A stretch of 64,000 bases of DNA from Acidimicrobiia bacterium (GCA_965216725.1 CBDCGI010000005.1:10343-74342); one strand, 5' to 3'; counted from the stretch's first letter, positions 858 through 62,661 are shown. The notes: a model not told the origin generated them from the letters alone. Numbers and translations are program-made.

Positions 858-859
858 CA

Positions 860-2780: not shown

Positions 2781-2878
2781 GATCGATCCTCCTTTGCTAG
2801 AGTGAGCCACTAGTGACGAACTATAGTACCGACTCTGGAAGCCGTCCGAAGAATGTCAAGACGGTTCACAGCGGGACG

Positions 2879-3475
2879 ATGCCCAGGGTTCGCGCCGTTG
2901 CCATCGGCGCCGCTGTTGGTCTAGCTTGGGCACTCGCTCTGCGCTCCTGGATGACTCACCTGGCCATTCAGTTCAACGATTGGCCGAGATTCACCTGGGA
3001 AGGCACGTTTTTGGCCGTGCTCCTGCCCGCGGCTGTTGTGGGAGCGTTGATCGGCTGGAACAGTGCGACCGGGGTCGGGAATAGCCGTGGTCGGCGGTGG
3101 GTGATGTGGTCTCCCGTGCTCCTGGCTGTGGGACCGGCACTCCTCGCGGACGATTTCGTAGGAACGCTCATGGACACAGGTGAAGGCAGTGGGGCCCTGG
3201 GTGTCGTCATCATCGGCATCTGCGGTGGGTTTGCGATCTCGGACCGCGGTCGCCCCTGGCTGCGCTGGACCAACGGACTCATCGCTGTGGGGGTCACCGG
3301 CGTCATGACCTACATCTTCTACTTCGCCGAACCGCCGTTCACGAGCAGCGACGCCTTTGGAGCCCTATTGCTAGTGATGCTGATGCTTGGGCTCGCCTTG
3401 GGTTGCTCGGTTCCGAGGCGGGAGTGGGGGCCAACCGGCAAACCCGTTGAGAGCGTCCACCTGGAGACACGATGA
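2879..3475 (+). CDS. Membrane protein Y2, paralog of 860..1468.
   Basis: See 860..1468. The ATG at 2879 aligns with the paralog's N-terminus (MPRVRAVAIGAAVGLAWAL vs MGTGRAVAVGAGLGLAWAV). The track ORF begins at the GTG at 2813. Confidence 0.55.
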   Translation: MPRVRAVAIGAAVGLAWALALRSWMTHLAIQFNDWPRFTWEGTFLAVLLPAAVVGALIGWNSATGVGNSRGRRWVMWSPVLLAVGPALLADDFVGTLMDTGEGSGALGVVIIGICGGFAISDRGRPWLRWTNGLIAVGVTGVMTYIFYFAEPPFTSSDAFGALLLVMLMLGLALGCSVPRREWGPTGKPVESVHLETR

Positions 3476-4212
3476 GCTTCGGCCTCCTTCGAAGTGCGTT
3501 GTCCCAACCCACAAGGGGCGGTGCAATCTCCGGGGCGGCGGCAGTGACGACGCTGGCCATCGGAGGCTCTTTGGCAACCTTCTTTCTGTCGTCCGCTCTG
3601 TGGCTCTCTCGTATGGGCTTTGCGACTCCGGGCGGTTCTGGCGGTCGCCCTTGGACCGTGTGGTTCGTGACTGTAAGCCTTCTACTTGTTCTCCTTCCGC
3701 CCTTCCCGGGAGGGTGGGTGTGGGGCTGGGGGCTTGCACGCATGTTTGACCGTCCGACGCGATCTGCGGCCAAAACCGGGGCGTTGGCATTCGGGGGAAT
3801 GGTATGGCTGACTGCCGCCCCCACCGATCTCACACAACTGTGGCTCGATGGCCTCCCCGCATGGATGCCCTGGGACGTCCATGGCTACTTCACGGTCGTC
3901 TTCATGGTCGAAGTAGCGGTTGTAGGCGGCGTCGCCGCCTGGCGTCTCGCCAAGCGACTCGGCTCCGGACGCTGGAGTTTCTCGGTTGGCGTCTGGACCG
4001 GAACGGCGGCCGCCCTCGGGTTTCTCATCGGCTCGGTCGTGGCTGCCGCTGTCGGCTTCCGGATCTACCCGTGGGTGAGACTGTCGATGGTCTGGGCGTT
4101 TCTTACCGCACTCCCGTTTTCAACCGTGGCTGCGGGTGCCGTGCTCGGTGCTTTGCTGCACCAGTCTCTACGCATGGATACAGATGAACGCGAATTCGTG
4201 GCCCGGCTCTGA
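3472..4212 (+). CDS. Polytopic membrane protein X2, paralog of 1..857. Its start overlaps the previous stop (ATGA).
   Basis: Multi-TM. Shares the C-terminal GRWSFSVGVWTGTAAALGFLIGSVV block with PGWRYSVWTGTFLAALMGMGFVVYP of the first gene. Confidence 0.5.
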   Translation: MSFGLLRSALSQPTRGGAISGAAAVTTLAIGGSLATFFLSSALWLSRMGFATPGGSGGRPWTVWFVTVSLLLVLLPPFPGGWVWGWGLARMFDRPTRSAAKTGALAFGGMVWLTAAPTDLTQLWLDGLPAWMPWDVHGYFTVVFMVEVAVVGGVAAWRLAKRLGSGRWSFSVGVWTGTAAALGFLIGSVVAAAVGFRIYPWVRLSMVWAFLTALPFSTVAAGAVLGALLHQSLRMDTDEREFVARL

Positions 4213-4343
4213 GACATCGGACGTGGGCTCTATCAATCTCTCCCAGACGTCGACCTTGCGGCCATCCGAACTCGACCGAGCCACCAATCTTGAGTCCAGC
4301 TCGGGAGTCCTCGACTTTGGTCGTTTGAAGTCAGAGAACCAGC

Positions 4344-4553
4344 CTTGTGGGGCGCCTGTGGACCGCCAGATCTCGCCGATCACCAATATCGGTGGTGAAG
4401 AGCGATCGCGAATCGCCCTGACCAGGGGATTCGGTGGAGCTGATCGGATTTGAACCGACGACCCCCTCGTTGCGAAAGATGCGGTCAAACCTCTCTGACC
4501 AGGGGAAACGCGCCGGTTGTGGTCCTTTGTGGGGCGGCTGTGGGCCGAGCGAC
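4344..4553 (-). repeat. Composite element A: R1 motif (4344-4375), CTGACCAGGG box, a tRNA-Ala 3'-half-like pseudo-tRNA (about 4432..4510, minus strand) whose 5' half is replaced by a GGTCA..TGACC hairpin, then R2 motif (4515-4553).
   Basis: The segment TTCGCAACGAGGGGGTCGTCGGTTCAAATCCGATCAGCTCCACC matches the tRNA-Ala at 16083..16159 from the anticodon loop to the acceptor 3' strand, with compensatory T-stem changes. It is flanked by cttgtggggcgcctgtgga... and gttgtgg..tttgtggggcggctgtgggccgagcgac. Confidence 0.6.
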
Positions 4554-4646
4554 ATGAGAGGTCGCGAGACGTGGTGAGATGAGGCAGCCAGTTGCTTCCG
4601 ATTTTGTCGTCGTGGGCGCAGGTCGCTCTGCCATGTCCGACCGCCG

Positions 4647-6056
4647 CTAGGACGGTCGGATGTTCTGATTCATGTGAAAAACGTTGTTGGGGTCGTACCG
4701 ATCCTTGAGCGTCACGAGACGCTCGTAAGTGTCGGCACCGTAGGCAGAGCGCACGGCGTCATCCGTCTCATTGGCGAGGAAGTTGAGATACGGATCGCCT
4801 GCCCCGACCAGCTGGAGATCATCCCAGGTGTCCCTCACCCAACTCACATGGTCGCTTCTCGGCTCGCCTTCGTCCCACTGGCCGATCACATTGAATACAA
4901 AGGGCTTGGTTCGATGCGGAAACGCGGTGGCCGAGTCGTCCACTCGACGTACCGCACCACCTAGATGATGCAGATGGAACGTGGAGTGCGGATTCAGGTT
5001 CTCAAGACTCCGACAACGTTCGACGATCGTCCCGATGACTTCCACAGAGAGCGTGTCGAGGTACGCCGTCTTCCAGTAGTTATGCGACCCGTATGGGGCC
5101 GAATTGTCGAACATGGACTGCAGAGCCAGATAAGGCATTGGGCCGACGATGTCGACTTCAGCCGCGGTGAAGTCTCGTAGCGGTTTGAGAGACGCCTCTG
5201 CCTGGCCTTGATCGCCTATGTGGCAGCAAGCGACAGCCACCATTGGGCTGCCAACCAGCTCGGAGGGAACAAATGGCGCCGGAGGAGCAGTGAGGAAAAC
5301 CACCATCGTTGTCAAGTCATCGGGAAGGTTCTCAACCCAATTCGAGTAGAACGACAGAAGATCCTCCGCCTTGTCGGCGCCATACATGATCACCCCTCCG
5401 TAGATGATTGGACCCACCTCGTGAAGCTCGTACTCGAACTCGGTCACGACGCCGAAGTTCCCGCCACCTCCGCGAAGCCCCCAGAGAAGCTCGCTGTTCT
5501 CCTCTTCATCGGCTCGAACGAACTGTCCATCTGCAGTGACCACATCTGCTCCGATGAGGTTGTCAACGGCTAGACCGTGGCGCCGCATCAGCCAGCCGAT
5601 GCCGCCACCCAGAGTGAAGCCGGCGATTCCAGTGGAAGTCACCAGACCCCCGGTCGTTGCCAATCCAAACGCCTGCGTCTCGTGGTCCAGCTCGCCCCAC
5701 AAGACACCGCCCTGAGCTCGGGCCCGTTTCGACTTCGGGTCTACGCGAATGCCTTTCATTGGCGACAGGTCGATCACAAGTCCGCCGTCCACCGTTGCGA
5801 AGCCGGCGACGTTGTGGCCACCACCACGGATGGCGATGTCAAGATCTTCGCTCCTTGCGAACTTGATGGCCTCGGTTACGTCAGCCGCCCCAACGCAACG
5901 AACGATCAATGCGGGATGTCTGTCGATATCCCCGTTCCACACAGTCCGGGCTTCTTCGTAGACGGCATCTTCGGGCGTCACCACCCATCCCCGGATCGCC
6001 TCTCGGAGCTCTTGTACGGTCGCATCGCCGAGTCTGGAGATTTGGGTGGTAGCCAT
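4647..6056 (-). CDS. FAD-linked oxidase of the BBE/VAO-like family (FAD-binding PCMH domain plus BBE-like C-terminus).
   Basis: RGGGHNVAGFATVDGGLVIDLSPM FAD-binding motif region. C-terminal YLNFLANE...YGADTYERLVTLKDRYDPNNVFHMNQNI is a typical BBE C-terminus. ATG at 6056. Confidence 0.8.
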   Translation of the reverse strand: MATTQISRLGDATVQELREAIRGWVVTPEDAVYEEARTVWNGDIDRHPALIVRCVGAADVTEAIKFARSEDLDIAIRGGGHNVAGFATVDGGLVIDLSPMKGIRVDPKSKRARAQGGVLWGELDHETQAFGLATTGGLVTSTGIAGFTLGGGIGWLMRRHGLAVDNLIGADVVTADGQFVRADEEENSELLWGLRGGGGNFGVVTEFEYELHEVGPIIYGGVIMYGADKAEDLLSFYSNWVENLPDDLTTMVVFLTAPPAPFVPSELVGSPMVAVACCHIGDQGQAEASLKPLRDFTAAEVDIVGPMPYLALQSMFDNSAPYGSHNYWKTAYLDTLSVEVIGTIVERCRSLENLNPHSTFHLHHLGGAVRRVDDSATAFPHRTKPFVFNVIGQWDEGEPRSDHVSWVRDTWDDLQLVGAGDPYLNFLANETDDAVRSAYGADTYERLVTLKDRYDPNNVFHMNQNIRPS

Positions 6057-6177
6057 TGAGGTTGCCTTTCAGAGTCCCTCTTCGGGCCGATGTCGGCCCG
6101 AATGCATTCCGCCACTTCTACACCCCGGCTCTTTGCGACGGCTTAGCAATGCCTTGCCAAACTTCTGTCGGCCGAAC

Positions 6178-9100
6178 TCACTTGTCCAAAGACGCCCGGA
6201 GCGTCAAACACCGGTTCGCCTCATCCTCATGGCCAATTCGCTCGAAGGTCTCCGCGGCCTCGGTCAAACACAGGTAGGCCTCCTCTTTGAGCCCTGCCGC
6301 CCGCTGAGCTTCTCCGAGATCGCGCTTAGTGCAGGCGATGTTGAGGCCGAACTCGCCAAAGGCGGCGACCACCGGCAGGGACTCGTTCAGTAGCGACACC
6401 GCAGACTCGGCGTCACCGCCAGCCAGAGCCGCTTGGGCTCGCTCGGTTCCGACCAACGCCAGGCCGATGCGGTCGGCTCGTTGCCGACACAACTCTGTGG
6501 CCTCCTCGAGATAGCTCGCGGCCTCATCCAATCGTCCGCGATCCGCCAGAACACGGACAATGCTGATGAGGCTGGCAACGACCCCTCGCAAGTGGCCGAT
6601 TCGTCTCCTCGAGTTGAGACTTCGCATCAGGTGATGCTCAGCCGCATCGAGGTCTCCGCTCTCGAAATCGAGTTGGCCCCGCCACGACAACGCAAGAGCC
6701 TGACCACTTTCGTCTCCGACTTCCTCGTAATGTCGAAGGGCTGCGTCCAGCAACGAGGCGACCTGATCTAACCGCCCAGACAGCCTCTCGATGTTCGCCC
6801 TAGCCACAGCCACGGAGGCGCTGGCATGACGGCCGATTCCGTCTTCCAGAGAAACGAATGTCTCGCACCACATGTACAAGGTTTCGCCTCTACGTCTGGT
6901 CGGAGCCCAAGCACCCAGCGTGTAGATGTCGAAGACACCAGGAGTCTCGAGGGTCGAGAGGAGCGTCTCGGCTCGATCGAGAAATGCTCCAGCTTCGTCA
7001 TAGTCGAGTCGGAATGTGGCGAGCATGGCCAGGCAGAGATATGCGGAGACCTCGAGCGCATCATCATCAACGCCACGCGCCAGGTCACGGGCTTGTTTGA
7101 ACAAGGCACCCGCGATCTCGAATTCGTCGCGATCGAATGGTCCTATCGCTGCGAGTAGCAGTGCCCGGCCAACCCGCGAATCGTCTGCCAGGGCCGTCGC
7201 CTCTGCGGCGCTCAGAGCGGCGAAACGCTCCATCTCCTCGAATCCCTTCCATCGAAAGGCAACCGCGGAGGCTGCCAACAGCAGGTCTGCCCGATCAGCC
7301 GACGGTCCAGATGCGTGCTCGAGTACACGCTCGATCAACTCGAGCCCTTCACCTAGATGGGCCAGCCAGAGCCAATAGGGCCACAGTCGCGACGCGAGAC
7401 GAACGGCAAGGCTGGGACTCGTGGCCAAGAGATGGTCGACTGCAGGGCCAAGTTCATCGCGTACCGCCGAGAGACGCGCGACCAGTTCAGCGCGGTCCGA
7501 CGCATCGGTCATCCCGCCGGATTCTGACAATCGGAGCAACCACTCGGCGTGGGAGTCCCTCGTTTCTCGGAGAGCACCCTGGTGTCGCAAGGAGTCGAGG
7601 CCGTACTCTCTCATCGTCTCGAGAAGGCGATAGCGGAACTGTCCGTCGGCCGTGATAGCGACCATCGACTTCTCGGCCAGACGACTGAGAAGAGAGGCAA
7701 TCTCACCCTGGATGTCCGACTGCGCTATCGACTGGGCTGCCTCCAGATCAAATGGACCGTTGAACACCGACAGCCTCAGAAACAAAGACTGCTCCGGTTC
7801 TGAAAGCAGATCGAAACTCCAATCGACGGTGGCCTTGAGGGTCCGCTGGCGACTCAAGGCAGTTCGCGCCCCGTCTACCAAAAGCCCCAAACGGTCATCG
7901 AGATTCTTCGCAACGTCGGCGACTGACAAGGTAGGAACGCGTGCCGCAGCCAGTTCGAGCGCCAAAGGCATACCATCGAGCCGGAAACACACCTGAGCAA
8001 CCTCGGTCATGTTTTCTTCGCTGACTTCGAAGTCTGGTTGCACGGCCTGGACCCGCTCACGAAACAACGTGATCGCGTCGAACCGATACATCTCGTCTGC
8101 GGGCGGCAGGTCAGTCGGGTCGGGTACGCGCAACGACGAGACTCTGCGAACTATCTCTCCCGGAACTCGGATCGGCTCTCGACTCGTGGCGAGCACAGTC
8201 AATCCGGGACAGCTCTCCAGGAGGTTTGCCATGGCTACGGCCACGCCATCAGCAACGTGTTCGCAATTGTCCAATATCAGAAGCACTTCGTCCTCGGCGA
8301 TTCGGTCGGCGACAGCCTCGACGGCGGTTCTATCAGGCCCGCGGCGAACGTCCAGAGCCCTCATCAGCTCCGCGGACACCTCATCTGCCCGTGCCACCGG
8401 GGCAAGTTCGACGAGGAACACACCACCACTGAAGTCGTCGAGATGCCTTCGGCCCGCTTCAACGGCCAGCCGAGTCTTTCCGCATCCTCCGGGACCGACC
8501 AGTGTCACCGTCCGACCACTAGACAGCGCCTCTCCGAGTTCGCGCAGCTCCTTCTCTCGCCCGACGAAACTCGACAAGGGAGCACCGATATTCGTCGCAG
8601 GTCGCGACCTGGAAGACGCTCCCGGCTCGACCGGTAACAAGCGGCCCATCGCGATTTCGTCACGAAGACTCTGCGACGTCTTGTCGGGTGCAACGCCCAA
8701 TTCGTCTTGCAGGACCCGCTCCAGCACGTCGTACTGACGCGCAGCAGCGCTCCTTTCGCCCGCCTTGGCGTAGAGCCGCATCAGCTCTCGATGAGCTGAC
8801 TCGTTGGTCGGATCCTCCACCAGGATCTGGCGCAAGAGGTCCGCCGCCGCGTTCGCCTCACCAGAGTCTTCGAGCGCGTTGGCCAGCCCACGCATGAGGT
8901 CCAGATTCAAGCGGTGAAGGATCTCCCGTCGCCCAATTGCCCAATCTGAATATCGATCATCCGGCAGGAGTTCTCCTGGGTAGAGATTCAGAGCGGTCTC
9001 GTAGTCCAATCTTGTCTGACTAACCAGCGCGTGACGCGCCGCAGACTCGAACTCCTCGACGTCCACCGAGAGCCCTCCGCCAGGGCACAAGACCAACGTC

Positions 9101-9393
9101 TCCGCCTCCAAGGACAGAAGGGCACGCCCGTCGCCACCCGCCGAATCGATCGCCCGTCGGGCGGCATGCAGAACCTGATACAGATTGTTGGCTGCTGCAT
9201 CCATATCCCTATCGGGCCACAGAAGATCAAGAACTTCGTCGCGCTGCTTTCGCCAACCACGCGAAAGGGCAAGCAGTTTGATTAGATCCCTGGCCTTGCT
9301 CAGACGCCACACCGATGGCTCGACGGATCGGTCGCCAACCCAGACTTGGAAGTCGCCGAGAAGCACAACACGGAGTTGGCTGTTGTGACCCAT
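6178..9393 (-). CDS. AfsR/SARP-like multidomain regulator: OmpR-type winged helix, BTAD, NB-ARC-like P-loop NTPase and TPR repeats.
   Basis: N-terminal LRVVLLGDFQVWVGDRSVEP...RDEVLDLLWPD (OmpR/SARP DNA-binding domain). BTAD segment LYPGELLPDDRYSDWAIGRREIL. Walker A TLVGPGGCGKTRLAVE. Long C-terminal TPR-like helical repeats. Confidence 0.8.
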   Translation of the reverse strand: MGHNSQLRVVLLGDFQVWVGDRSVEPSVWRLSKARDLIKLLALSRGWRKQRDEVLDLLWPDRDMDAAANNLYQVLHAARRAIDSAGGDGRALLSLEAETLVLCPGGGLSVDVEEFESAARHALVSQTRLDYETALNLYPGELLPDDRYSDWAIGRREILHRLNLDLMRGLANALEDSGEANAAADLLRQILVEDPTNESAHRELMRLYAKAGERSAAARQYDVLERVLQDELGVAPDKTSQSLRDEIAMGRLLPVEPGASSRSRPATNIGAPLSSFVGREKELRELGEALSSGRTVTLVGPGGCGKTRLAVEAGRRHLDDFSGGVFLVELAPVARADEVSAELMRALDVRRGPDRTAVEAVADRIAEDEVLLILDNCEHVADGVAVAMANLLESCPGLTVLATSREPIRVPGEIVRRVSSLRVPDPTDLPPADEMYRFDAITLFRERVQAVQPDFEVSEENMTEVAQVCFRLDGMPLALELAAARVPTLSVADVAKNLDDRLGLLVDGARTALSRQRTLKATVDWSFDLLSEPEQSLFLRLSVFNGPFDLEAAQSIAQSDIQGEIASLLSRLAEKSMVAITADGQFRYRLLETMREYGLDSLRHQGALRETRDSHAEWLLRLSESGGMTDASDRAELVARLSAVRDELGPAVDHLLATSPSLAVRLASRLWPYWLWLAHLGEGLELIERVLEHASGPSADRADLLLAASAVAFRWKGFEEMERFAALSAAEATALADDSRVGRALLLAAIGPFDRDEFEIAGALFKQARDLARGVDDDALEVSAYLCLAMLATFRLDYDEAGAFLDRAETLLSTLETPGVFDIYTLGAWAPTRRRGETLYMWCETFVSLEDGIGRHASASVAVARANIERLSGRLDQVASLLDAALRHYEEVGDESGQALALSWRGQLDFESGDLDAAEHHLMRSLNSRRRIGHLRGVVASLISIVRVLADRGRLDEAASYLEEATELCRQRADRIGLALVGTERAQAALAGGDAESAVSLLNESLPVVAAFGEFGLNIACTKRDLGEAQRAAGLKEEAYLCLTEAAETFERIGHEDEANRCLTLRASLDK

Positions 9394-9478
9394 TTGGAGG
9401 ACCCTATTTTGTCGGCTGCCACCGAGCCGAGGGATTGCGAGAGCACCTCGCAGAAAATGAGGGGGTCACGGCACGAAT

Positions 9479-9688
9479 CTTGTGGGCCCTCTGTGGAGCG
9501 CGAGAATCAACCAGCGCCTCAATCGGCTCGTCGGACGCGGTCAGAAATCGCCCTGACCAGAGTGTTTAGTGGAGCTGACGGGATTTGAACCCGTGACCCC
9601 CTCGTTGCGAAAGATGCGGTCATAGCCCTCTGACCAGGGGGAACGATCTGCAATTGCGGCGTTGTGGGGCGGCTGTGGGCCGAGCGAC
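9479..9688 (-). repeat. Composite element B: R1 motif (9479-9506), CTGACCAG box, a tRNA-Ala 3'-half-like pseudo-tRNA (about 9568..9645, minus strand) whose 5' half is replaced by a hairpin, then R2 motif (9661-9688).
   Basis: The segment TTCGCAACGAGGGGGTCACGGGTTCAAATCCCGTCAGCTCCAC is identical to the 3' half of the tRNA at 16083..16159 except for the terminal CTA (tRNA has CCA). The upstream ~130 bp also aligns with the region downstream of the real tRNA (15955-16082). Confidence 0.65.
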
Positions 9689-9875
9689 GTGAGATCACGT
9701 GAGACGCCGGGCATGCAACAAGATCGAAGAATGGCACACCCAACCGCAACTCTCCTATCGCCAGCGGCACACGCCACCTCGCCGGTCGTGACACGGGAAA
9801 GTCCACTCAGCATGGTGTTGGGGCGAGCACTGGCCATAGAATCTCTGACTCGTCTGGAGGGATACCACCGTCACT

Positions 9876-10559
9876 CTGAAACCGAGAACAATCTTCGTTG
9901 ACGAGAGTGGCGTGGGTGGTCAAGGACCCTTCATCGTCGTCGGCGCTCTCAAGTTCGCTAGGGACTACGGCTTGGTCACAAACGAACTTGTCACCTTGCG
10001 TGACAAGGCCAACTGGAGATCCGAAGCCCACTTTTCCAAGATCAATCGGACCACCGAGCATCTCTACCGGGAGACCATCAAGATTGTCGCCGAATCCGGT
10101 GCCCGCTTTAGGTACGTGGTTCACGATCGGCGGCAACCGAACCTCGACTTTGAACGCCATAAGGAACCCTGGAAGCGTGACGCTCAACTGGCGATTCGCC
10201 TCCTACGGTCGGCCACATGGACCGGCGAGACAGTCACGTCCATCATCGACTACGTGTCAACGCCGCGCTCGGTTAATTACGAGAACTACATCCACGTAGC
10301 TGTAAATCGGCTGCTCGGGGAGGAACAGGTTGTCTCTGTTCTCAGAATGGACTCCAAGACCTGTTGGGGCCTCCAACTCGCTGACATCCTCACTGGAGCG
10401 GTAGCGCACCAATACATGCAGTCAGTCAAGTCCGAGGTCAAGGCGACGACGCCAAAAGGGAGGGTCGCTGGGTTCGTCGCCGAGACCTACAACCTTGAGT
10501 CACTGATCATGGCTGATTCCAAGAAACTCAAAATGATCGGACTACCAAAGAAGGATTAA
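9876..10559 (+). CDS. DUF3800-family protein. The start codon is unresolved: the conserved N-terminus lies upstream of the first canonical start.
   Basis: Manual translation upstream of the GTG at 9912 gives TIFVDESGVGGQGPF, the (I/Y)(F/I)(I/V)DESG signature of DUF3800. C-terminal LQLADILTGAV matches the second DUF3800 signature. No ATG, GTG or TTG lies between the in-frame stop at 9846-9848 and the motif (candidates: CTG at 9876, ATC at 9891). G+C is visibly lower than in the neighbouring genes. Confidence 0.55.
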   Translation: MKPRTIFVDESGVGGQGPFIVVGALKFARDYGLVTNELVTLRDKANWRSEAHFSKINRTTEHLYRETIKIVAESGARFRYVVHDRRQPNLDFERHKEPWKRDAQLAIRLLRSATWTGETVTSIIDYVSTPRSVNYENYIHVAVNRLLGEEQVVSVLRMDSKTCWGLQLADILTGAVAHQYMQSVKSEVKATTPKGRVAGFVAETYNLESLIMADSKKLKMIGLPKKD

Positions 10560-10695
10560 GGGTTCACTAAAGGGCACCGACGCTATAGAGTGGACGGTGT
10601 CCACGGTGTGAGTCTCCGACTCCTAGCCGTGGCCGAGGTGCGAGCCCCCGGCTCTCAGCCTCGCAGCGCCACACGGCGCAACACATCATTACTCA

Positions 10696-10727
10696 GGAAG
10701 GGGCCTCTCAAACGGGAGGTCCCTTCC
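10696..10727. terminator. Hairpin GGAAGGGGCCTC-(loop)-GGGAGGTCCCTTCC followed by tcctttat, lying between convergent genes. Candidate bidirectional intrinsic terminator.
   Basis: Imperfect 12-bp stem followed by a T-rich tail, read directly from the sequence. Confidence 0.4.
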
Positions 10728-10879
10728 TCCTTTATCGGCCAATCTCTTGGTCCGCGGGCGACAGACCCAGATCTTTCGAGCCGGGGATGTCGCTCGAATA
10801 GATGGACTGCGGGCCCGGCGTGAGTCAGGAACCACGAAGATCGCGTGAGTGTGTGCAGGGTCAAGGCCTGAGATTGTGG

Positions 10880-11158
10880 TCAGGAGCAGTTCTGAAGGAA
10901 TTGCTCGATCGCCGCGTCATCCTCAAACGTCGAAGCCAACTCGGACGCTCGTTTGATTGGTCCCTTGACCTCATTTGGGGCGACCTCATATAGAGCGGCC
11001 ATCGCCTCTTGCCTGCTCTGGTCCCGCACCGTCTCGTACGTCTGACAGAACACACCGATCTCCTCGACGGTCGCTGGCAACGGAGCCGTGGTCGCAGTGT
11101 TGGGAGCGCCAGCACACGCAGCCAACACCACCGCCATCAAGACCATGTGTCGCCTCAT
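10880..11158 (-). CDS. Small secreted lipoprotein, about 92 aa.
   Basis: N-terminus MRRHMVLMAVVLAACAGAPN: signal peptide with LAAC lipobox. The ATG at 11158 overlaps the stop of the upstream gene (ATGA). The long N-terminal extension in the track ORF is read-through and is not supported. Confidence 0.5.
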   Translation of the reverse strand: MRRHMVLMAVVLAACAGAPNTATTAPLPATVEEIGVFCQTYETVRDQSRQEAMAALYEVAPNEVKGPIKRASELASTFEDDAAIEQFLQNCS

Positions 11159-11964
11159 GAGGACAGTTTGTGACGCAAGCTCCGGATGATTCGTATCACG
11201 AGTGCAAGTCCGGCAATCGCCCAGCAGGCCAACATTCCTTGAATTGCGAACCCCGCCAGAGAGTCGGCCGTCTCGACCGACCAAGGCAGTGCGATCGGGT
11301 TTGGAATCGAGCCGACGAGCATCGGATGAAACAGGGCGATTATCCCGAGCGCTGCTGCCACGACGTAGGTGAATCGGACTGCCCAGCGCCAACCTCTCGA
11401 AGGGAGGCGGCCGTTGGGGATCGTCATCAAGAAACGAGGAACGATCACTACCAGCAGAAGGATCCACGTAACCGAACCAACTAGCGCCGCGAGCCGACCG
11501 CCGGGCAGACTCCCAGGTTCGATCATCGTCCCCCTTACCGCATACGCACCGGCAACCGCACCGACCAAGTCGACTAGTGGACCGAGAATCAGAAGCCATC
11601 CGATCTGATTCCCCCACCTGAGCACCAGTAATGCTCCAAGAGCAGCGATTGCAGTCAGCACCACCGGATACGCAAATCCACCGTGATCATCGAATGGGAC
11701 ACATTCCACCTGCCCTGAAGCGACGAGCTCCCCGGCGTCGGAACAGACAGGCTGGCCGCTGTAAACAAGCTGCTCGTAAGCCTCGACGTCGAAGTCACTT
11801 GAGCTGACGTAGCTCGGGATCGGTTCATCGGATAGACCGGACTCGAGCACCGTCAGCACCAACCCAAGGGCCAATACCAGAAAGACCAAGCCGTAGATCC
11901 GGACTCGCCGTCTGCCGTAGGTAGTCGGCCTGGCATGGGGTTCCACTGTTGTGTTCGAATTCAC
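11155..11964 (-). CDS. Membrane protein that is a stand-alone paralog of the transmembrane sensor domain of the histidine kinase at 12074..14269.
   Basis: LLLVVIVPRFLMTIPNGRLPSRGWRWAVRFTYVVAAALGIIALFHP aligns with HK VVLGPLLLLTFPNGRLVSTRWRWVPGVALLSGALLLVQLAHP, and the flanking helices also align. The GTG at 11964 is preceded by AAAGGAGGAGAAGGA. Confidence 0.55.
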   Translation of the reverse strand: MNSNTTVEPHARPTTYGRRRVRIYGLVFLVLALGLVLTVLESGLSDEPIPSYVSSSDFDVEAYEQLVYSGQPVCSDAGELVASGQVECVPFDDHGGFAYPVVLTAIAALGALLVLRWGNQIGWLLILGPLVDLVGAVAGAYAVRGTMIEPGSLPGGRLAALVGSVTWILLLVVIVPRFLMTIPNGRLPSRGWRWAVRFTYVVAAALGIIALFHPMLVGSIPNPIALPWSVETADSLAGFAIQGMLACWAIAGLALVIRIIRSLRHKLSS

Positions 11965-12073
11965 TCCTTCTCCTCCTTTGGAGACGTCATTCGAACGTAA
12001 GGTCCGATCCGGCCAACCGACACATGGCCTACCCCACATCTGATCACCGTGGAGACACCACCCGGCTTTAGGT

Positions 12074-14269
12074 ATGCCAACGGTGTCTCCAACGCCCCGT
12101 GGTTGGCATGATTGGGCGATGACCCGGGCCTGGATGGTTTTAGTGGGTGTCCTGATCGCTGCCGTGGCCACGCTCGTCCTCACGCTGGGAACCTCGGACA
12201 CGCGAGCACCTGTCGTCGCCTTCGAAGATTTCACCTATCAGGAGGCCGAGCGGACCCTGAGCGAGGTTCCACTACTGCTGGCAGACGACCCGGCGCTTGA
12301 CGTTGAAGACTTGGATGGTCGATACCCGCTCCTGACTGCCATCGAAGGGCCGGAGCCTGCAGGCGTGGCATGGGCAGCCCTCGGCGTTCTGACCGCACTT
12401 CTTGGGGTTCTTGCCTGGGTCCGGGCATCCAACCGGTTCGGCTGGTATCTGATGGCGGTTGGAATCGTGGCGGTGGCGTTTGGAATGGCGCGCGCTGTCT
12501 CCGATTTCGCAGTCCACAGAAGCCCTACGGAATCGGTCTTCGGATCCCAGGCGGCTTTTGCACTCGCAGACACTCTGTGGATTCCCTTGGGTGTCGTCTT
12601 GGGGCCGCTTCTCTTGTTGACGTTTCCCAATGGCCGGCTTGTCTCGACGAGGTGGCGCTGGGTTCCAGGGGTGGCGTTGCTGTCCGGTGCGCTTTTGTTG
12701 GTTCAACTGGCTCATCCCCGTCGTTACGACGGACGTGCCCTGGCTCCATACCCAGCTCCGAATCTCGACATCCTCGAGCCTCTCTTCAATCTGGGGATCT
12801 ACCTATGGATGCTGGCCTTGGCGGTCGCCGGTTTGTCTCTGATAGTGCGGTTCTTCCGATCGGCCGGCTCAGAGCGGGACCAGCTCAAGTGGGTTACGTA
12901 TGGGCTCGTGGTCTCCCTAGCTCTGCTCGCCTTGTCAGACCTGGCGCAGCGATTCGGCGGTGATCCAGCCATCTGGGGGCCCGTTGCCAGTGCCGGCTTC
13001 CTCTTCTTGTTACCCCTCACGTTTCTCTTCTCGATCTTTCGCTACCGACTTTTCTCTATCGACATCGTGATCAACCGCACAGTGCTGTTCGGTGTCCTCT
13101 CTCTGCTCGTGGCATTGACATACGTCGCTGCCATCGCAGTGGCTGGATCGCTGGTAGGAGCCGGAAATGTGACGTCAGCTCTCATTGCGATGACCGTCAC
13201 GGCCTTCGCGTTCGAGCCACTGCGAGTGAGGACCGTGTCCCTCTTCGACCGGCTCGTCTGGAGGAGGCGCTCGGAGCCAGGCGACGCGCTGACCGAAGTA
13301 TTCACCACAATCGAAGACCGAGACGGAGATGAGGGCATGACGACCGTCGTCGGTGCCGTTGCTGAGGCTACCAATGCCCGCTACGTGGCGCTTTGGATCA
13401 ACAATGGGGAAGACATTCGGCTGTTGGTGACAGCTCCTTCGGACGTTGAACAGTCGCTGGACGACGGGTGGGACGTCGTCGCACCAGTTGGCGACACCGG
13501 AGCTCTCGGGGTCCGCATGTCACCCGGCGACCGGCTCCGGCGACAGGAGAGGAGACTTGTCCACGACCTGGCGGGGCTCGCTGCGCTCCTCCTCAAGAAC
13601 AACCAGTTGCGGTCAGATTTGGACGGCATAGTCGCTGAGCTCGAAACCAGGCACGGCGAGCTCATAGCCGCCGAAAGACGTCTGCAGGATGTCGTCGATC
13701 GGACACGAGCGGATGTGGAGCGCGACCTCCACGACGGGGCACAGGCGAGAGCTGTTGCCCTTGCCTCGGCCATCGGATTGGCCCGGGTCGCCCCCACCTC
13801 CACAGACCCGCAGCAACTGGCTTCTCTAATCGAGAACGCAGAAGAGGAGGTCGTTTCCTTCGCAAACGGCCTGTACCCCGCCGCTCTTGGCGCGAGCGGA
13901 CTCGAAGGAGCGATTCGGGGTCAAGCTCGCCTCCTCCTGCCGGACGCAGTCGTCCAAGTGGAAGCTGACGGGGTACCCCAAGACATCGCGGCAGTTGCGT
14001 ACCTGGTGGCCAGCGAAGCCATCTTGAACGTGGCCAAGCACGCCGGGTCGTCGCAAAACCCACCAAGGATCAGATGCGCGACGGATGGTTCCGAGCTCAG
14101 CATCGTTGTCAGCGACGACGGACCAGGCTTCTCGGTTCCTGCGCGGTCGACTGGCTCAGGGCTCAAAAACATCAGGGAGAGAGTCGAAGCCCTGGAGGGC
14201 TCCCTTCGTGTTGACTCGACGCCCGGCTATGGAACCAACCTCCTAGCCACAATCCCTGTGACACCATGA
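12074..14269 (+). CDS. Sensor histidine kinase: polytopic N-terminal sensor with FPNGRL / RWRW motifs, a HisKA_3-type DHp domain and an HATPase_c domain.
   Basis: About 350 aa of membrane region, then ERDLHDGAQARAVAL (HisKA_3 H-box), then ILNVAKHAGS...VSDDGPGF...GSGLKNIRERVEALEG (N, G1 and G2 boxes). The start could instead be the internal ATG at 12119. Confidence 0.8.
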   Translation: MPTVSPTPRGWHDWAMTRAWMVLVGVLIAAVATLVLTLGTSDTRAPVVAFEDFTYQEAERTLSEVPLLLADDPALDVEDLDGRYPLLTAIEGPEPAGVAWAALGVLTALLGVLAWVRASNRFGWYLMAVGIVAVAFGMARAVSDFAVHRSPTESVFGSQAAFALADTLWIPLGVVLGPLLLLTFPNGRLVSTRWRWVPGVALLSGALLLVQLAHPRRYDGRALAPYPAPNLDILEPLFNLGIYLWMLALAVAGLSLIVRFFRSAGSERDQLKWVTYGLVVSLALLALSDLAQRFGGDPAIWGPVASAGFLFLLPLTFLFSIFRYRLFSIDIVINRTVLFGVLSLLVALTYVAAIAVAGSLVGAGNVTSALIAMTVTAFAFEPLRVRTVSLFDRLVWRRRSEPGDALTEVFTTIEDRDGDEGMTTVVGAVAEATNARYVALWINNGEDIRLLVTAPSDVEQSLDDGWDVVAPVGDTGALGVRMSPGDRLRRQERRLVHDLAGLAALLLKNNQLRSDLDGIVAELETRHGELIAAERRLQDVVDRTRADVERDLHDGAQARAVALASAIGLARVAPTSTDPQQLASLIENAEEEVVSFANGLYPAALGASGLEGAIRGQARLLLPDAVVQVEADGVPQDIAAVAYLVASEAILNVAKHAGSSQNPPRIRCATDGSELSIVVSDDGPGFSVPARSTGSGLKNIRERVEALEGSLRVDSTPGYGTNLLATIPVTP

Positions 14270-15060
14270 CATCCCAGAGCCTTCCCGCCACGGCACGCAT
14301 ATTGATCTCCAGTGCTAGCGGCCTCGTCGCCGTGACAGTCTTCTCTCTCATGGCGCTGCCGTTCGGCTTCGCAGGGCTCACCGAGCCGACACCAGCGCCC
14401 ATCCTCTTGGGCGCTGCAATTCTGACAACTGTCATGCCACAGGTTCGCAGGTCTATGGGGCGGGTCATTGAACGGAATCCAAGATGGGCGAGCGGCGACT
14501 CATATGAGCTCATGGCAGCCGGATCGCGCCTCAAGCCTGAGACCGGGCCCAATGCTGTGCTCAGCGAACTGGCTGAGCTTGCCCGAAGGTCTGCGGCTGG
14601 CAGTTCAGCCAAGGTCCAATCCGAAATCGGTGAAGCAGAATCCGGCACTCCCAGCTCAACCGCGTTCCGAACCTCCGTGAACCACCTAGGCCGGGAGATC
14701 GCTTCAATAACGGTAACGAGTTCTAGCCCTCTGAAGCCTCAGCAGCGAAAGAGAGTGGAGCAGCTGGCATTGTCAGTCGGAGTGGTTGTAGCCAATGCTG
14801 TTGTCATCGGCAGCATCGAGGAGAGAATCTCGGAGTTGGATCGCACCATCGAACTCATCACGATGAGAAGAAGGTCTGTCGTCGAAGCGGAGGCAGCGGA
14901 AAGGCAACGGGTCGCCAGCGATGTTGTCGCCGGGACCGAGCCCATGTTTCGACAACTTGAGTCATCCATAGGGGCCGGGGACTTCGGCGACGCCGCAGAC
15001 ACGTGTGACCAGCTCATAGTGTTTCTCCGTGGCTTCTCGACGGCCATGCGGGAGCAATGA
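14266..15060 (+). CDS. Histidine-kinase-like protein with 2 TM helices, a juxtamembrane segment and a DHp-like region. It has no phospho-acceptor His and no ATPase domain.
   Basis: The start overlaps the HK stop (ATGA). SSPLKPQQRKRVEQLALSVGVV...EAEAAERQRVASDVVAGTEPMFRQL aligns with HK SPGDRLRRQERRLVHDLAGLAAL...RTRADVERDLHDGAQARAVAL. The H-box His is replaced (ASDVVAG vs ERDLHDG). Confidence 0.5.
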   Translation: MTSQSLPATARILISSASGLVAVTVFSLMALPFGFAGLTEPTPAPILLGAAILTTVMPQVRRSMGRVIERNPRWASGDSYELMAAGSRLKPETGPNAVLSELAELARRSAAGSSAKVQSEIGEAESGTPSSTAFRTSVNHLGREIASITVTSSSPLKPQQRKRVEQLALSVGVVVANAVVIGSIEERISELDRTIELITMRRRSVVEAEAAERQRVASDVVAGTEPMFRQLESSIGAGDFGDAADTCDQLIVFLRGFSTAMREQ

Positions 15061-15752
15061 CGATACGTGTACTGGTAGCGGAGGATGATCTCCTGGTTCG
15101 TCGCGGCATCGTCGCCCTCCTAAGCACACAGGACGACATCGAAATCGTCGCCACAGCCGAAGACCTGGAAACGCTCCTCTCTGCCGTCTCCGAGCACCAG
15201 CCAAGTGTCGTGCTCACTGACATCAGGATGCCGCCGAGCCACACCGATGAGGGGATACGAGCCGCCGTCACCCTTGCGGACCGCCATCCAGGTGTGGGTG
15301 TTGTTGTCCTGAGCCAGTATGACGACCCCGAGTACGCAGTGAGGCTGCTCGAAGACGGGAGCGAGGGGCGCGGCTACCTCCTCAAAGAGAGGGTCTCGAA
15401 CGTGGCACATTTGGTGGAAGCCCTCCAAAAAGTGAATCGAGGCGGTTCGTACGTAGACCCCAGGGTGATCGATCGCTTGGTTGACGCGAAGAGGTCTGAG
15501 CCATCCGGCATCAAGTGGCTTACTCCGAGGGAAGGTGAAGTCCTCGCCGAGATGGCACAAGGGAGGGACAATGCAACGATCGCGGACACTTTGTCGATCA
15601 ACATCCGGTCTGTCGAGAAACACATCAACTCGATCTTCGCCAAGCTGGGCCTGACCGAAGAGAGCGGCATCAGCAAGCGAGTCGCTGCCGTTCTCTCCTA
15701 TCTCAATGCAGCCGACGATGCTCCAGGACACAACAAGGCTGACACCCCCTGA
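15057..15752 (+). CDS. NarL/FixJ-family response regulator: REC domain plus LuxR-type HTH.
   Basis: VLVAEDDLLVRRGI...VVLTDIRMP receiver domain. C-terminal LTPREGEVLAEMAQGRDNATIADTLSINIRSVEKHINSIFAKLG LuxR HTH. Start overlaps the previous stop (ATGA). Confidence 0.85.
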   Translation: MTIRVLVAEDDLLVRRGIVALLSTQDDIEIVATAEDLETLLSAVSEHQPSVVLTDIRMPPSHTDEGIRAAVTLADRHPGVGVVVLSQYDDPEYAVRLLEDGSEGRGYLLKERVSNVAHLVEALQKVNRGGSYVDPRVIDRLVDAKRSEPSGIKWLTPREGEVLAEMAQGRDNATIADTLSINIRSVEKHINSIFAKLGLTEESGISKRVAAVLSYLNAADDAPGHNKADTP

Positions 15753-16082
15753 CGATCCGAGAAATCTCAAACGCCGGGTCACGGTCCGAAACCCGGTTCT
15801 AGGAGCCGCCGCGAGTTCTGAGGGACCAAGCCGAGTTCTCGGAGAGTGATCGGCGTCGCTTGACCGGCAGTCCCGTGGCACGCCTGCCACTTCTGGGCAC
15901 CAAGAGCTACAGCCCTCGCTCGATCGACTTCGCTCAGGAACCAGCAACTCAGCCTGACCCCCTCGCAGCAAATGAGGGGGTCAGCGATCAGATCTTGTGG
16001 GGCGCCTGTGGAGCGCGAGACTCGACCAACGCCCAATTCGGCCGACTGGGAGCCAGTCAGAAACGGTCCTGACCAGGGCAAA

Positions 16083-16159
16083 TGGTGGAGCTGACGGGAT
16101 TTGAACCCGTGACCCCCTCGTTGCGAACGAAGTGCTCTGCCAGGCTGAGCTACAGCCCC
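16083..16159 (-). tRNA. tRNA-Ala, anticodon CGC.
   Basis: The reverse complement reads GGGGCTGTAGCTCAGCCTGGCAGAGCACTTCGTTCGCAACGAGGGGGTCACGGGTTCAAATCCCGTCAGCTCCACCA: a cloverleaf with a G3:U70 pair, anticodon-loop CGC and an encoded CCA. Confidence 0.85.
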
Positions 16160-16300
16160 GTGTTTGGGAACGAGAATTGTACCGATGGACTTCGAGATGA
16201 CCGCATTCGGCGATTCCGCGCGGGGAACGTCCCAAATCTGACCCTCTGCTCCTAAGGAAGCCGGGTTGGGCAGCGGCCGGGCCGTTTCGTGAGCCCCCGC

Positions 16301-16747: not shown

Positions 16748-16851
16748 GCTGCTCCTATCGAGGCTAAGTGACCTGAGCCCCACGGCCCCAGTTGGCAATT
16801 CTGTTTGGCAAATGTCCCATATGTGACGCCGTCCTCCTAAGGACTGCGGGT

Positions 16852-23333: not shown

Positions 23334-23423
23334 CCCAGTCGGGCCGCAGCATCCGCGGCACGGTGCTTTCATCGAGGTTCGCTTGTGTCGAGCCGCTTTT
23401 CGTTGAGCCCGCTTTTTGTCGAA

Positions 23424-23612
23424 CCTGCACCAGAACGCGCCATACGCGGCTCAATGCACGGTCGACAAAACGGATCCCACCCTCACTCCACGAGCCTGCA
23501 CCAGAACGCGCCATACGCGGCTCAATGCCGGGTCGACAAAACGGATCCCACCCTCACTCCACGAGCCTGCACCAGAACGCGCCATACGCGGCTCAATGCC
23601 GGGTCGAGGAAC
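23424..23612. repeat. Tandem direct repeat with a ~70-bp unit, about 2.6 copies, in the convergent intergenic region between the SnoaL-like gene and dapB.
   Basis: Unit ctgcaccagaacgcgccatacgcggctcaatgc(a/c)(c/g)ggtcgacaaaacggatcccaccctcactccacgagc appears at 23424-23493 and 23494-23564, with a partial copy to about 23612. Confidence 0.85.
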
Positions 23613-62660: not shown

Positions 62661-62661
62661 A

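Follow-up and report, generated by a model that had tools for sequence, protein, structure and literature searches.

Our analysis suggests that small integrative islets have been stacked in a tandem array on the 3' half of a tRNA-Ala(CGC) gene by a lineage-specific tyrosine integrase, and that the islets of the window (the whole 64,000-nt stretch of DNA analysed here, numbered from its first letter) are integrase-less, CIME-like units; we put the probability of this reading at roughly three in four. Stacking at the 3' half of a tRNA gene is a known principle of genomic-island building, and the family seen here is large, undescribed and unusually cassette-like, almost all of its members being without an integrase of their own. 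The islets of the window fit the cis-mobilizable definition because they have no integrase and keep both attachment-site arms: segments 9689-16082 and 4554-9478 are each bounded by the core and both arms of a repeat (that is, attL and attR are kept), integration and transfer genes are absent from them, and their contents are cargo genes only.

ARAGORN found a single tRNA gene in the window, the intact tRNA-Ala(CGC) on the minus strand at 16083..16159, which serves as attL and as the point of entry into the array. The repeated core is a 43-nt stretch of this gene running from the anticodon loop to the acceptor end (16085-16127, minus). A search within the window with the pattern TTCGCAACGAGGGGGTCNNNGGTTCAAATCCNNTCAGCTCCAC returned three exact matches, all on the minus strand (16085-16127, 9569-9611 and 4434-4476), compared with 0.00 expected by chance from shuffles. 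The three cores share one orientation, and one end of the series is the intact tRNA; the search for dispersed copies in the bacterium's own genome covered the 64-kb window. Partial copy B (9569..9611, minus) is identical to the tRNA 3' half over all 43 nt and forms the junction between islets 1 and 2. Partial copy A (4434..4476, minus) matches the pattern and differs from the tRNA solely in its T-stem, where ACGGG/CCCGT has become GTCGG/CCGAT with pairing kept. The 5' half of the tRNA is absent from both copies, in agreement with the initial annotation, which had described two echoes of the gene from the anticodon loop to the 3' end.

That annotation had also seen the compensatory T-stem substitutions of copy A, correctly, and had offered two explanations for them. 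Copy A does not derive from another isoacceptor, because its anticodon loop is still CGC, and its GTCGG/CCGAT stem is also the T-stem of a genuine tRNA-Ala(CGC) in an actinobacterial MAG (L056). As for selection for RNA structure, each type of fully paired T-stem variant examined among the partial copies was also found in a real tRNA, and therefore compensatory change alone is no proof of selection on the copy. About half of the variant T-stems among partial copies are broken, and chimeric T-stems such as ACGGG/CCCCC exist among them.

The repeat had been taken for the tRNA 3' half, and while that core is present at all three sites, the unit proves to be bigger, at about 300 nt, and consists of a U arm, the 43-nt core and a D arm. 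The U arm (about 95 nt, common to both partial copies) carries CTCAC repeats, CCACAG-N4-CCCACAA and GGTCA-N8-TGACC, and the D arm (about 110-130 nt, common to all three copies) holds CCCTGGTCAGG and TCCACAGGCGCCCCACAAG. The X motif occurs five times in the window, only at repeat sites, with 0.06 occurrences expected. The D arm after the tRNA, at the left end of islet 1 (15954..16082, minus), has its Y motif, CCCTGGTCAGGA, at 16067-16078 and its X motif, TCCACAGGCGCCCCACAAG, at 15994-16012, and also contains a terminal hairpin CTGACCCCCTC-N9-GAGGGGGTCAG (15954-15984); this same arm stands after cores in L014, L022, L023, L026, L047 and L054. At its right end, islet 1 has a U arm (9612..9706, minus) that matches the consensus of 137 U arms. 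The CTCAC repeat is present twice in it, alongside GTCGCTCGG; its X motif reads CCCACAGCCGCCCCACAAC (9661-9679), and its Y motif at 9628-9639 belongs to the Y inverted repeat GGTCA-N8-TGACC. The D arm after copy B, at the left end of islet 2 (9441..9568, minus; Y 9551-9562, X 9479-9497, terminal hairpin region 9441-9470), matches the arm that follows the tRNA in L022 at 84% identity over 124 nt. The U arm of islet 2 (4477..4571, minus; X 4526-4544, Y 4493-4504) has slightly degenerate repeats (CTCGC/CTCAT), and the D arm after copy A (4344..4433, minus; Y 4416-4427, X 4344-4362) is without the terminal hairpin. Across the 137 copies, which stand beside unrelated cargo, most positions along some 90 nt of the U arm show conservation of about 70% or more.

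Islet 1 (9689..16082, 6.4 kb with its arms) encodes a LuxR-type response regulator (15057-15752, +), a gene of unknown type (14266-15060, +), a 731-aa HATPase protein (12074-14269, +), one or more unknown ORFs (10880-12234, -) and a DUF3800 protein (9912-10559, +); histidine kinase/response regulator cargo related to it is also found in other arrays. The cargo of islet 2 (4554..9478) consists of a SARP-type BTAD/STAND-ATPase/TPR regulator (6178-9393, -) and a BBE-like FAD oxidase (4647-6056, -). Pfam thus agrees with the gene content first assigned to the two segments, and neither Pfam nor phmmer found a recombinase in positions 1-16200 or in the whole 64 kb, as had been stated. Islet 2 has a close counterpart elsewhere: window positions 4646-9702 align with positions 412-5483 of L096 at 77% nucleotide identity over 5.1 kb (74% and 87% for the two proteins), and the L096 cassette has the same bounding repeats and different neighbours.

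The two delimited segments are both bounded by repeats, as annotated, although two is a minimum, since a third islet probably lies below position 4344. The genes there had been regarded as ancestral neighbours of the tRNA. We consider the open-ended segment 1..4343 most likely a third element, and not ancestral flank, because none of the 80 related loci has a homologue of its genes downstream of the tRNA, its composition is foreign and an element-type D arm precedes it. None of its five ORFs has a significant Pfam match (a sub-threshold DUF2070 hit for 87-857 being the only one), and the product of 87-857 has a 38%-identical homologue adjoining a partial copy in L150. In the composition check that the initial annotation had proposed, all three pieces were outliers against the rest of the window by tetranucleotide distance (islet 1, GC 0.600, z = 4.4; islet 2, GC 0.605, z = 4.6; 1..4343, GC 0.607, z = 3.8).

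In relatives, the tRNA-Ala(CGC) lies downstream of MoeA in 60 of 80 related loci, a synteny kept across Acidimicrobiia, and the DNA beyond the tRNA is hypervariable and unrelated between relatives; the presence/absence polymorphism is judged from this unrelated downstream content at the 80 loci. Nine of 49 related loci break off no more than 300 nt beyond the tRNA, as would be expected of assembly breaks. Five other MAGs have one partial copy 2.6-5.8 kb downstream of the tRNA, and the segments so enclosed contain no recombinase by Pfam and, by phmmer, one integrase remnant (L013).

Tyrosine integrases or their remnants do occur in relatives, at the tRNA-Ala or at partial copies, consistent with the earlier suggestion that the recombinase of the window elements has been lost or acts in trans. 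An integrase inside the element beside the att site was seen only in related members (L043, L066 and the pseudogenes of L187/L196/L201). In L066 a Phage_integrase + SAM_3 gene adjoins the tRNA. The integrases of L043, L187/L196 and L186 are about 73% identical to one another; the gene begins just after the core, on the tRNA strand, in L043 and L187/L196, and is reduced to a C-terminal remnant inside a cassette in L186. Between the core and the ATG in L043 lie a Y-like inverted repeat, four to five CTCAC repeats and CCCACAGAGGTCCCACAAA, which are the motifs of the cassette arms, and the D arm corresponds to the integrase-upstream region of the integrase-bearing members. One of these, in L201, is a 10.1-kb element between two partial copies, with a standard U arm. 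At the same time, the cognate integrase is a pseudogene wherever this can be judged: those of L187/L196/L201 carry frameshifts and have lost the C-terminus in 12 contigs. That of L043 is interrupted by a contig end, the 11 close database homologues are all fragments, 87-152 aa long, and no intact member of the family was found among the loci and database homologues examined. The nearest full-length example found, L066, is 33-48% identical to it.

From this arrangement we infer the crossover position, a circular intermediate and present-day mobilisation in trans. The circular element would carry an attP of about 300 bp. On one side of the 43-nt core, its U arm would bring phased CTCAC repeats together with CCACAG-N4-CCCACAA as a direct repeat and GGTCA-N8-TGACC as an inverted repeat; on the other side, its D arm would have another GGTCA inverted repeat and another CCACAG-CCCACAA repeat as well as the terminal hairpin. 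The integrase would join attP with the tRNA gene, whose sequence would then be completed by the 3' half that the element brings, while its original 3' half moves distally. Further rounds of integration, whether into the restored tRNA or into any of the partial copies, would stack the elements. Once the integrase gene, placed directly after the core behind the same motif block, is lost, cargo-only cassettes would be left, which could move given a cognate integrase in trans or within a larger composite, and which may also be reshuffled by homologous recombination between repeats.

The repeat family extends well beyond the window. We found the U/core junction in at least 120 soil and sediment metagenome loci, with up to three co-oriented copies per contig, and metagenome loci, MAG loci and window together yield 203 cores in all, along with 40 bounded segments that measure between 113 nt and 11.3 kb. 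Cargo-only units of 1-7 kb make up the majority, the cassettes are multi-gene with genes on both strands, and few integrase-like ORFs turn up in the 725 kb of metagenome loci. All core copies are co-oriented and begin exactly in the anticodon loop, and arrays are anchored on an intact tRNA-Ala wherever their start is assembled. Cassettes that are 97.8-99.8% identical have different left or right neighbours in L145/L173, L103/L104, L093/L105, L098/L167, L086/L155, L087/L112 and L150/L195. Moreover, from the tRNA onward L147 (= L011) and L183 show 100% identity over 7 kb or more, compared with only about 84% upstream of it; the whole array has thus spread horizontally, with its boundary at the tRNA. 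Together with the hypervariable downstream DNA, the five MAGs, L096 and the integrases of relatives, these loci support the original view of the serial partial copies as scars of successive site-specific integrations.

The breakpoints of the shuffled cassettes fall at several positions and not at one: some are at the GGTCA repeats of the U and D arms, others at the 3' end of the core, at the D-arm hairpin or where the U arm ends on its outer side. This scatter over the ~300-nt unit, together with the chimeric T-stems, is explained by RecA-type recombination between repeats no less well than by one site-specific crossover. Perhaps the array is a fossil, built by old integrase insertions and now immobile, in which reshuffling and the seeming recurrence of one cassette in different contexts come only from homologous recombination, gene conversion and large-block transfer anchored on the conserved tRNA and the repeats. 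The degenerate state of every judgeable cognate integrase would agree with this, as would the failure to find an excised circle or attP junction among the 32 segments searched or in viral contigs, plasmids and phages. We nevertheless regard a fossil array as somewhat improbable. The noncoding U arm is kept in 137 copies beside unrelated cargo, where neutral decay would erase it (gene conversion could homogenise it), its phased CTCAC and CCACA repeats are typical of protein-binding arm sites, three or four breakpoints lie within or beside the spacers of GGTCA-N8-TGACC inverted repeats, and the family is abundant in many samples.

A different division of labour, in which the tRNA-Ala locus is a dedicated cassette site and an integrase encoded elsewhere, chromosomal or element-borne, routinely inserts and excises integrase-less cassettes via U-core-D, is in our estimation unlikely; the crossover may in that case take place at the GGTCA-N8-TGACC repeats flanking the tRNA half. 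It would account for the predominance of cargo-only units of 1-7 kb with conserved arms, for the lack of linkage between the core and either flanking cassette in L093/L105, L150/L195 and L098/L167, where the Y repeats hold the breakpoints, and for CCTGGTCAG, which 18 of 40 related genomes have no more than 40 nt beyond the intact tRNA. However, no recombinase is among the genes on the conserved side of the tRNA (MoeA, MoaC, a 145-aa and a 202-aa protein), the cassettes are multi-gene and in both orientations, the arms are not attC-like in structure, and other breakpoints fall outside the Y repeats. It is very improbable that the units are not attachment sites but modules with an RNA or regulatory function (for example tRNA-like processing signals, terminators or insulators) duplicated with neighbouring genes: there are local hairpins (GGTCAG-N8-CTGACC, and CTGACCCCCTC-N9-GAGGGGGTCAG after the tRNA) and several paired T-stem variants are retained in partial copies, but the arms fold no better than shuffles (z-scores -1.8 to +1.4), no Rfam family matches beyond the tRNA-like part, about half of the variant T-stems are broken, the copies are co-oriented from the anticodon loop in arrays anchored on intact tRNA-Ala, and integrase genes lie directly behind the same motif block.

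An integrase-built array of islets invites comparison with the actinobacterial elements that integrate into tRNA genes by tyrosine integrases, such as mycobacteriophage L5 at tRNA-Gly, pSAM2 at tRNA-Pro and SLP1 at tRNA-Tyr. These share an identity block, 43 nt long here, that reaches from the anticodon loop to the 3' end of the tRNA, and a complex attP with phased arm-type repeats on both sides and an adjoining integrase gene; they differ in that the window units are without integrase, excisionase, replication or transfer functions and that the cognate integrase here has only 33-48% identity to L066. Membership of the AICEs was rejected, as there is no int-xis, Rep or FtsK-like Tra in the window segments or in L186/L201. 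The likeness to integrons is a functional analogy only, recombinase-less cassettes with their own recombination sites at one chromosomal entry point; here intI, attI and Pc are all lacking next to the array, the sites do not fold as attC-type hairpins, and we rejected integron membership given the lack of a recombinase by the tRNA, the arm folding (z = -1.8 to +1.4) and the multi-gene, bidirectional cassettes. The ssrA-specific islands of Dehalococcoides reportedly each carry their own recombinase and target tmRNA, unlike the present units, which target tRNA-Ala and whose tyrosine integrase is mostly absent. They are tandem islands at one small-RNA gene, separated by direct repeats of its 3' end, likewise in an uncultured or environmental lineage (PMC3146451). 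The tycheposons of Prochlorococcus are similar as cargo elements at tRNA genes, with neighbours separated only by a partial tRNA copy, fragmented integrases, extra partial tRNAs scattered in the island and adaptive or regulatory cargo (bioRxiv 10.1101/2020.12.28.424599). By their description they differ in phylum and integrase lineage, and integrase-less units are the rule here, not remnants; Pfam scans of the window, the MAG segments and the integrase-bearing relatives gave no helicase or primase domains of a tycheposon-like replication module. A further close model is tandem accretion of CIMEs at att sites, established for instance for the ICESt1-related elements of Streptococcus thermophilus and the Streptomyces pathogenicity islands (PMC5704250). 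The units here differ from CIMEs in being much smaller (mostly 1-7 kb) and far more numerous, in having ~300-bp arms strongly conserved across a bacterial class, with cis-mobilisation inferred from sequence, and in showing no conjugation or mobilisation genes even in the integrase-bearing L186 and L201. They resemble them in the loss of integration genes with attL and attR kept, in tandem stacking at a tRNA 3' end (PMC5704250) and in that whole composites may move together, to which the array identity of L147 and L183 points indirectly.

A single tRNA gene is predicted by ARAGORN in the window, a tRNA-Ala(CGC) on the minus strand at 16083-16159. Searching the window with a 43-nt pattern that runs from the anticodon loop to the discriminator gave three matches, all on the minus strand (16085-16127, 9569-9611 and 4434-4476), where none would be expected by chance, so the serial partial tRNA copies described in the initial annotation are real. 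Copy B (9569-9611) shows no difference from the tRNA 3' half over the 43 nt, the sole change in copy A (4434-4476) is in the T-stem, from ACGGG/CCCGT to GTCGG/CCGAT, and both copies lack the tRNA 5' half. The tRNA part makes up only a portion of the repeated unit. Read in tRNA orientation, all three copies are followed by a D arm consisting of CCCTGGTCAGG, which is a piece of the inverted repeat GGTCAG-N8-CTGACC (Y motif), a spacer of about 45 nt and TCTCGCGCTCCACAGGCGCCCCACAAG, with a hairpin beyond these motifs after the tRNA and copy B. Ahead of both partial copies lies a U arm with CTCAC repeats, GTCGCTCGG, CCCACAGCCGCCCCACAA, a spacer of about 20 nt and CCCCTGGTCAGAG..TGACCGCATCT. The word CCACAG-N4-CCCACAA (X motif) occurs five times in the 64 kb, against 0.06 expected, and is confined to the sites of the tRNA and of copies A and B. 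With its 43-nt identity block starting in the anticodon loop and its phased direct and short inverted repeats in both arms, the anatomy of the unit is that of a classical complex attP.

Two likenesses within the unit were seen along the way. The Y motif of the U arm, CCCTGGTCAGAG (9628-9639 and 4493-4504), resembles the D-loop region of the tRNA, AGCCTGGCAGAGC at about 16134-16146, with CCTGG-CAGAG in common, and recurs 6 nt past the end of the tRNA (3' side). Either the U arm represents, perhaps, a tRNA 5' part in very degenerate form, or an integrase may recognise CCTGGnCAG to either side of the crossover. In the D arm, the terminal hairpin (15954-15984) has a 3' arm, ..TGCTGCGAGGGGGTCAG, that looks like the beginning of the core, ..TTCGCAACGAGGGGGTCAC, and in two related loci, L102 (4999-5197, tRNA orientation) and L175, the D arm runs at the hairpin directly into a second core, giving a "segment" of 113 nt, which hints at a secondary recombination site.

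No Rfam family was found in the units beyond the tRNA-like part, and the folds of the arms were not significant. Rfam, run in E-value mode, labelled the tRNA-Ala (16083-16159, 42 bits) and copy B (9567-9629, 25 bits) as tmRNA, presumably because the tRNA-like domain of tmRNA is of the alanine type; both scores are below the 47-bit gathering score, and these are not tmRNAs. On the minus strand, ORFs of about 100 aa at 9541-9837 and 4168-4488, which span the unit, formed the largest "protein" cluster and were rejected as coding, since they cross the tRNA half and there are non-triplet indels between the arms.

The T-stem of copy A had been ascribed to a different isoacceptor or to selection for RNA structure. 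It stems from no other isoacceptor and gives no evidence of selection on the scar: the intact tRNA-Ala(CGC) of one actinobacterial MAG (L056) has the same GTCGG/CCGAT stem. The remaining fully paired variant types examined among partial copies (GGGGG/CCCCC, AGGGG/CCCCT and GCGGG/CCCGC) are each likewise present in real tRNAs. Copy A is therefore best read as the 3' half of a formerly functional tRNA-Ala(CGC), which could have been the ancestral one of this lineage or that of another host.

The DNA between the units carries accessory-type content, as had been proposed. The genes in segment 4554-9478 code, by Pfam, for a SARP-type regulator (BTAD/STAND/TPR) and a BBE-like FAD oxidase; those in segment 9689-16082 code for a DUF3800 protein, ORFs of no assigned function, a 731-aa HATPase protein, a 264-aa protein likewise unassigned and a response regulator of the LuxR type. 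None of the five ORFs left of 4344 had a significant Pfam match. The three pieces downstream of the tRNA have a GC content of 0.600-0.607 (0.621 ± 0.008 in 5-kb windows of the other 48 kb) and tetranucleotide distances of 0.177-0.186 (null mean 0.131, maximum 0.164), so that all three are outliers in composition. The genes below 4344 had been taken for the ancestral neighbours of the tRNA, a view that does not survive: this region starts with a D arm, is foreign in composition and has no syntenic counterpart, and the homologue of one of its genes adjoins a partial copy in another locus (L150). The array probably extends past the left edge of the window.

No exact protein matches to the BBE oxidase or MoeA of the window are on record, and among 185,579 species genomes the nearest MoeA homologues, at 60% identity or less, are in Acidimicrobiia MAGs, with no close strain among them. 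The gene order MoeA, MoaC-like, 145-aa protein, 202-aa protein and tRNA-Ala(CGC) is kept, with the tRNA where expected in 60 of 80 related loci. Downstream of the tRNA no conserved DNA was seen in these 80 loci, nor any syntenic homologue of the window genes in 1-16082, and nine of 49 loci break off within 300 nt of the tRNA. In five MAGs (L011, L013, L014, L023 and L026) the tRNA is followed, 2.6-5.8 kb further on, by a partial copy with U and/or D arms as in the window. One of their segments encodes an Rce1-like protease, a HisKA_3 kinase and a LuxR regulator; the others carry a GAF kinase, an ECF sigma factor, a PIN-like/DUF433 pair with an M15 peptidase, and proteins of no assigned function. 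None of the five contains an intact recombinase in its segment, L013 having an integrase remnant.

Several further features of the locus were recorded. In L053 (12962-14767) a SulP/STAS permease gene starts 22 nt past the tRNA, with no arm motifs, and in L017 (13178-16753) an adenylate-cyclase/TPR gene separates this permease from the tRNA. L053 may be an unoccupied site in its own clade; the permease as ancestral neighbour of the tRNA is not transferable to the lineage of the window. On the other side of the tRNA, the window has an extra ORF of about 160 aa (16301-16798 on the minus strand, or 16289-16771 on the plus strand, the latter with no Pfam match) between the 202-aa gene and the tRNA, most relatives lack it and have the 202-aa gene ending about 100 nt before the tRNA, and L201-L204 have a PPK2 gene at its position; the upstream side is therefore also somewhat plastic. 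Elsewhere in the window, a 71-nt unit stands three times in tandem at 23420-23632 (100%, 96% and 66% identical to the first copy), and two C-rich tandem arrays with GGCC..CCTCC words adjoin each other at 62516-62754, one with a 53-nt unit (62516-62674) and one with a period of 28 nt (62661-62754), each of three repeats. The records of the MFD* MAGs (L007, L008, L013, L016, L017, L019, L023, L025 and L053) are titled "uncultured Acidobacteriota bacterium", a label that is probably wrong; these MAGs share the MoeA-tRNA-Ala synteny, 55-60% MoeA identity and nucleotide similarity with Acidimicrobiia MAGs.

When metagenomes were scanned with the U/core junction, which intact tRNAs lack, matches were found in at least 120 contigs (725 kb), mostly from soil and sediment as judged from JGI sample sets. 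Together, the metagenome matches listed, the MAG loci and the window hold at least 203 cores, 57 of these in intact tRNAs, and bound at least 40 segments, whose lengths range from 113 nt to 11.3 kb with a median of about 3.8 kb. Cores within one contig are all co-oriented, with up to three per contig among the matches listed. Over about 90 nt of the 137 U arms among those listed, most positions are conserved at roughly 70% or more, with the consensus tctcaC-cacgt-CTCAC-gacgt-CTCACGTCGCTCG-cc-CCACAGCCGC-n-CCACA ... CCCCTGGTCA-g-AG-g-GTTTTGACCGCATCT; conservation is weaker in the D arm, which retains the Y motif, the X motif and the terminal hairpin AGCACCTC-N9-GAGGTGCT. Recurrent cargo among the matches listed comprises LuxR response regulators, histidine kinases, SARP/STAND regulators, ECF sigma factors, assorted enzymes and an IS481-type transposase. 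An origin from phages, satellites or plasmids was rejected, the junction having no match in IMG/VR and the unit none in plasmid and phage collections.

IS481-family DDE transposases (LZ_Tnp_IS481 and rve) are a second layer of mobile DNA in these islands, with at least eight dereplicated copies inside arrays (L081 273-1847, L201 7171-8220 and relatives), the transposase among the clustered proteins being called by eye from its sequence, with support from precomputed Pfam matches (rve/LZ_Tnp_IS481) on an equivalent L201 gene.

Several findings mark the cassettes as discrete and exchangeable. Window 4646-9702 (U arm, copy B, D arm, SARP and BBE genes) is 77% identical to 412-5483 of locus L096, the SARP and BBE proteins being 74% and 87% identical; in L096 partial copies flank the cassette at both ends, and the DNA beyond differs from that of the window. 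Several cassettes are 97.8-99.8% identical yet have different left or right neighbours. L147 (the L011 locus) and L183 share 100%/99.98% identity over a stretch that starts at the tRNA, takes in the first cassette and the partial copy and goes on for at least 4 kb, against about 84% directly upstream of the tRNA; near-identity that starts at the tRNA indicates recent horizontal spread of the whole array, with the tRNA as its left boundary. Breakpoints between cassette pairs lie at the GGTCA repeat of the U arm (L093/L105, L150/L195) or of the D arm (L098/L167, L086/L155), at the 3' end of the core (L087/L112), at the D-arm hairpin (L145/L173) and at the outer edge of the U arm (L103/L104), positions too heterogeneous to derive a single crossover point. 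The core's T-stem variant goes with neither the left nor the right neighbour in three cassette pairs, and 11 of 21 variant T-stems are broken, with chimeras such as ACGGG/CCCCC and GGGGG/CCCGT among them. Such scatter is compatible with homologous recombination among the repeats, with site-specific exchange at two or more positions, or with a combination of these. Junctions of excised circles or tandem duplicates were seen for none of 32 segments.

No recombination gene is present in the window, as the initial annotation stated: Pfam gave none in the segments 4554-9478 and 9689-16082, and phmmer gave none among all six-frame ORFs of the window, the queries, also run against the loci, being XerD, Cre, lambda Int, gamma-delta resolvase and Acidimicrobiia integrases. 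Clustering of the array proteins among the matches listed yielded regulators, enzymes and the IS481-type transposase, with no recurrent new recombinase candidate. Integrases do occur in relatives. A more distant one, L066, has a bona fide tyrosine integrase next to the tRNA-Ala, with Phage_integrase and SAM_3 domains; L063, L073 and L077 have candidate integrase-sized ORFs adjoining the tRNA, with a weak XerD match and P4-like by eye. The family's own lineage is found right after the intact tRNA (L043), right after a partial copy (L187, L196 and L201-L208) and in L186, its members being about 73% identical to each other and 33-48% to that of L066. The 140 nt between core and ATG in L043 contain a CCTGGT...ACCAGG inverted repeat, four to five CTCAC-type repeats and GTCGTCCCACAGAGGTCCCACAAA. 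This is the same vocabulary as in the cassette arms, and the D arm of integrase-less cassettes therefore matches the arm upstream of the integrase, minus the gene. The array of L201, in which a complete member is seen, starts with the intact tRNA, a 6.8-kb cassette and a partial copy, followed by a 10.1-kb integrase-led element that ends in a standard U arm, another partial copy and a BTAD/STAND cassette. A frameshift breaks the L187/L196/L201-type integrase into parts of 103 and 194 aa, with its C-terminus missing in all 12 contigs, only the C-terminal part remains in L186, and the L043 gene is interrupted by the contig end. A full-length cognate integrase was not found; the L043 N-terminus as query returned 11 close database homologues, all fragments of 87-152 aa.

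The best explanation of the array is successive integrase-mediated insertion at the tRNA-Ala, after which loss of the integrase would have left att-flanked, cargo-only units. The exchangeable cassettes, the foreign composition of the pieces in the window and the integrase-bearing relatives lend support to serial integration scars bounding accessory segments. On present-day mobility the evidence points both ways. We give roughly one chance in four to the reading that soil Acidimicrobiia have a working cassette platform in their tRNA-Ala(CGC) locus, on which hundreds of integrase-less packets of 1-7 kb, rich in two-component, SARP/STAND and sigma-factor genes and each with a complete attP-like site of about 300 bp around the tRNA half, would be inserted, excised and exchanged by a dedicated tyrosine integrase in trans, with crossover possibly at the GGTCA-N8-TGACC repeats to either side of that half. 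Nearly all units are cargo-only yet keep long, strongly conserved attachment arms, identical cassettes recur across arrays and genomes, and the family spans Acidimicrobiia MAGs class-wide and at least 120 metagenome contigs, in an uncultured and abundant soil class. If mobilised in trans, the units would provide a simple, sequence-defined tracer of the flow of regulators and small metabolic modules among uncultured actinobacteria, and a new tRNA-specific integrase/att pair with a well-delimited site of about 300 bp; if not, they are a clear case of MAG assembly breaks and hypervariable regions arising at one tRNA.

Genomic islands that arise from repeated integration at tRNA genes are textbook biology, and the principle seen here, tandem accretion at a tRNA leaving CIME-like remnants, is already known. 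Att-flanked, cargo-only units are what the literature defines as CIMEs and tandem accretion (PMC5704250), and tycheposons are comparable tandem elements with partial tRNAs between them (bioRxiv 10.1101/2020.12.28.424599). As far as we could find, this specific family is apparently undescribed in the literature, and it is unusual in the number of its units, their small size, their cargo-only nature and the conservation of arms over about 300 bp. Should the platform reading be true, it would be a second, tRNA-based answer to the task of integrons.
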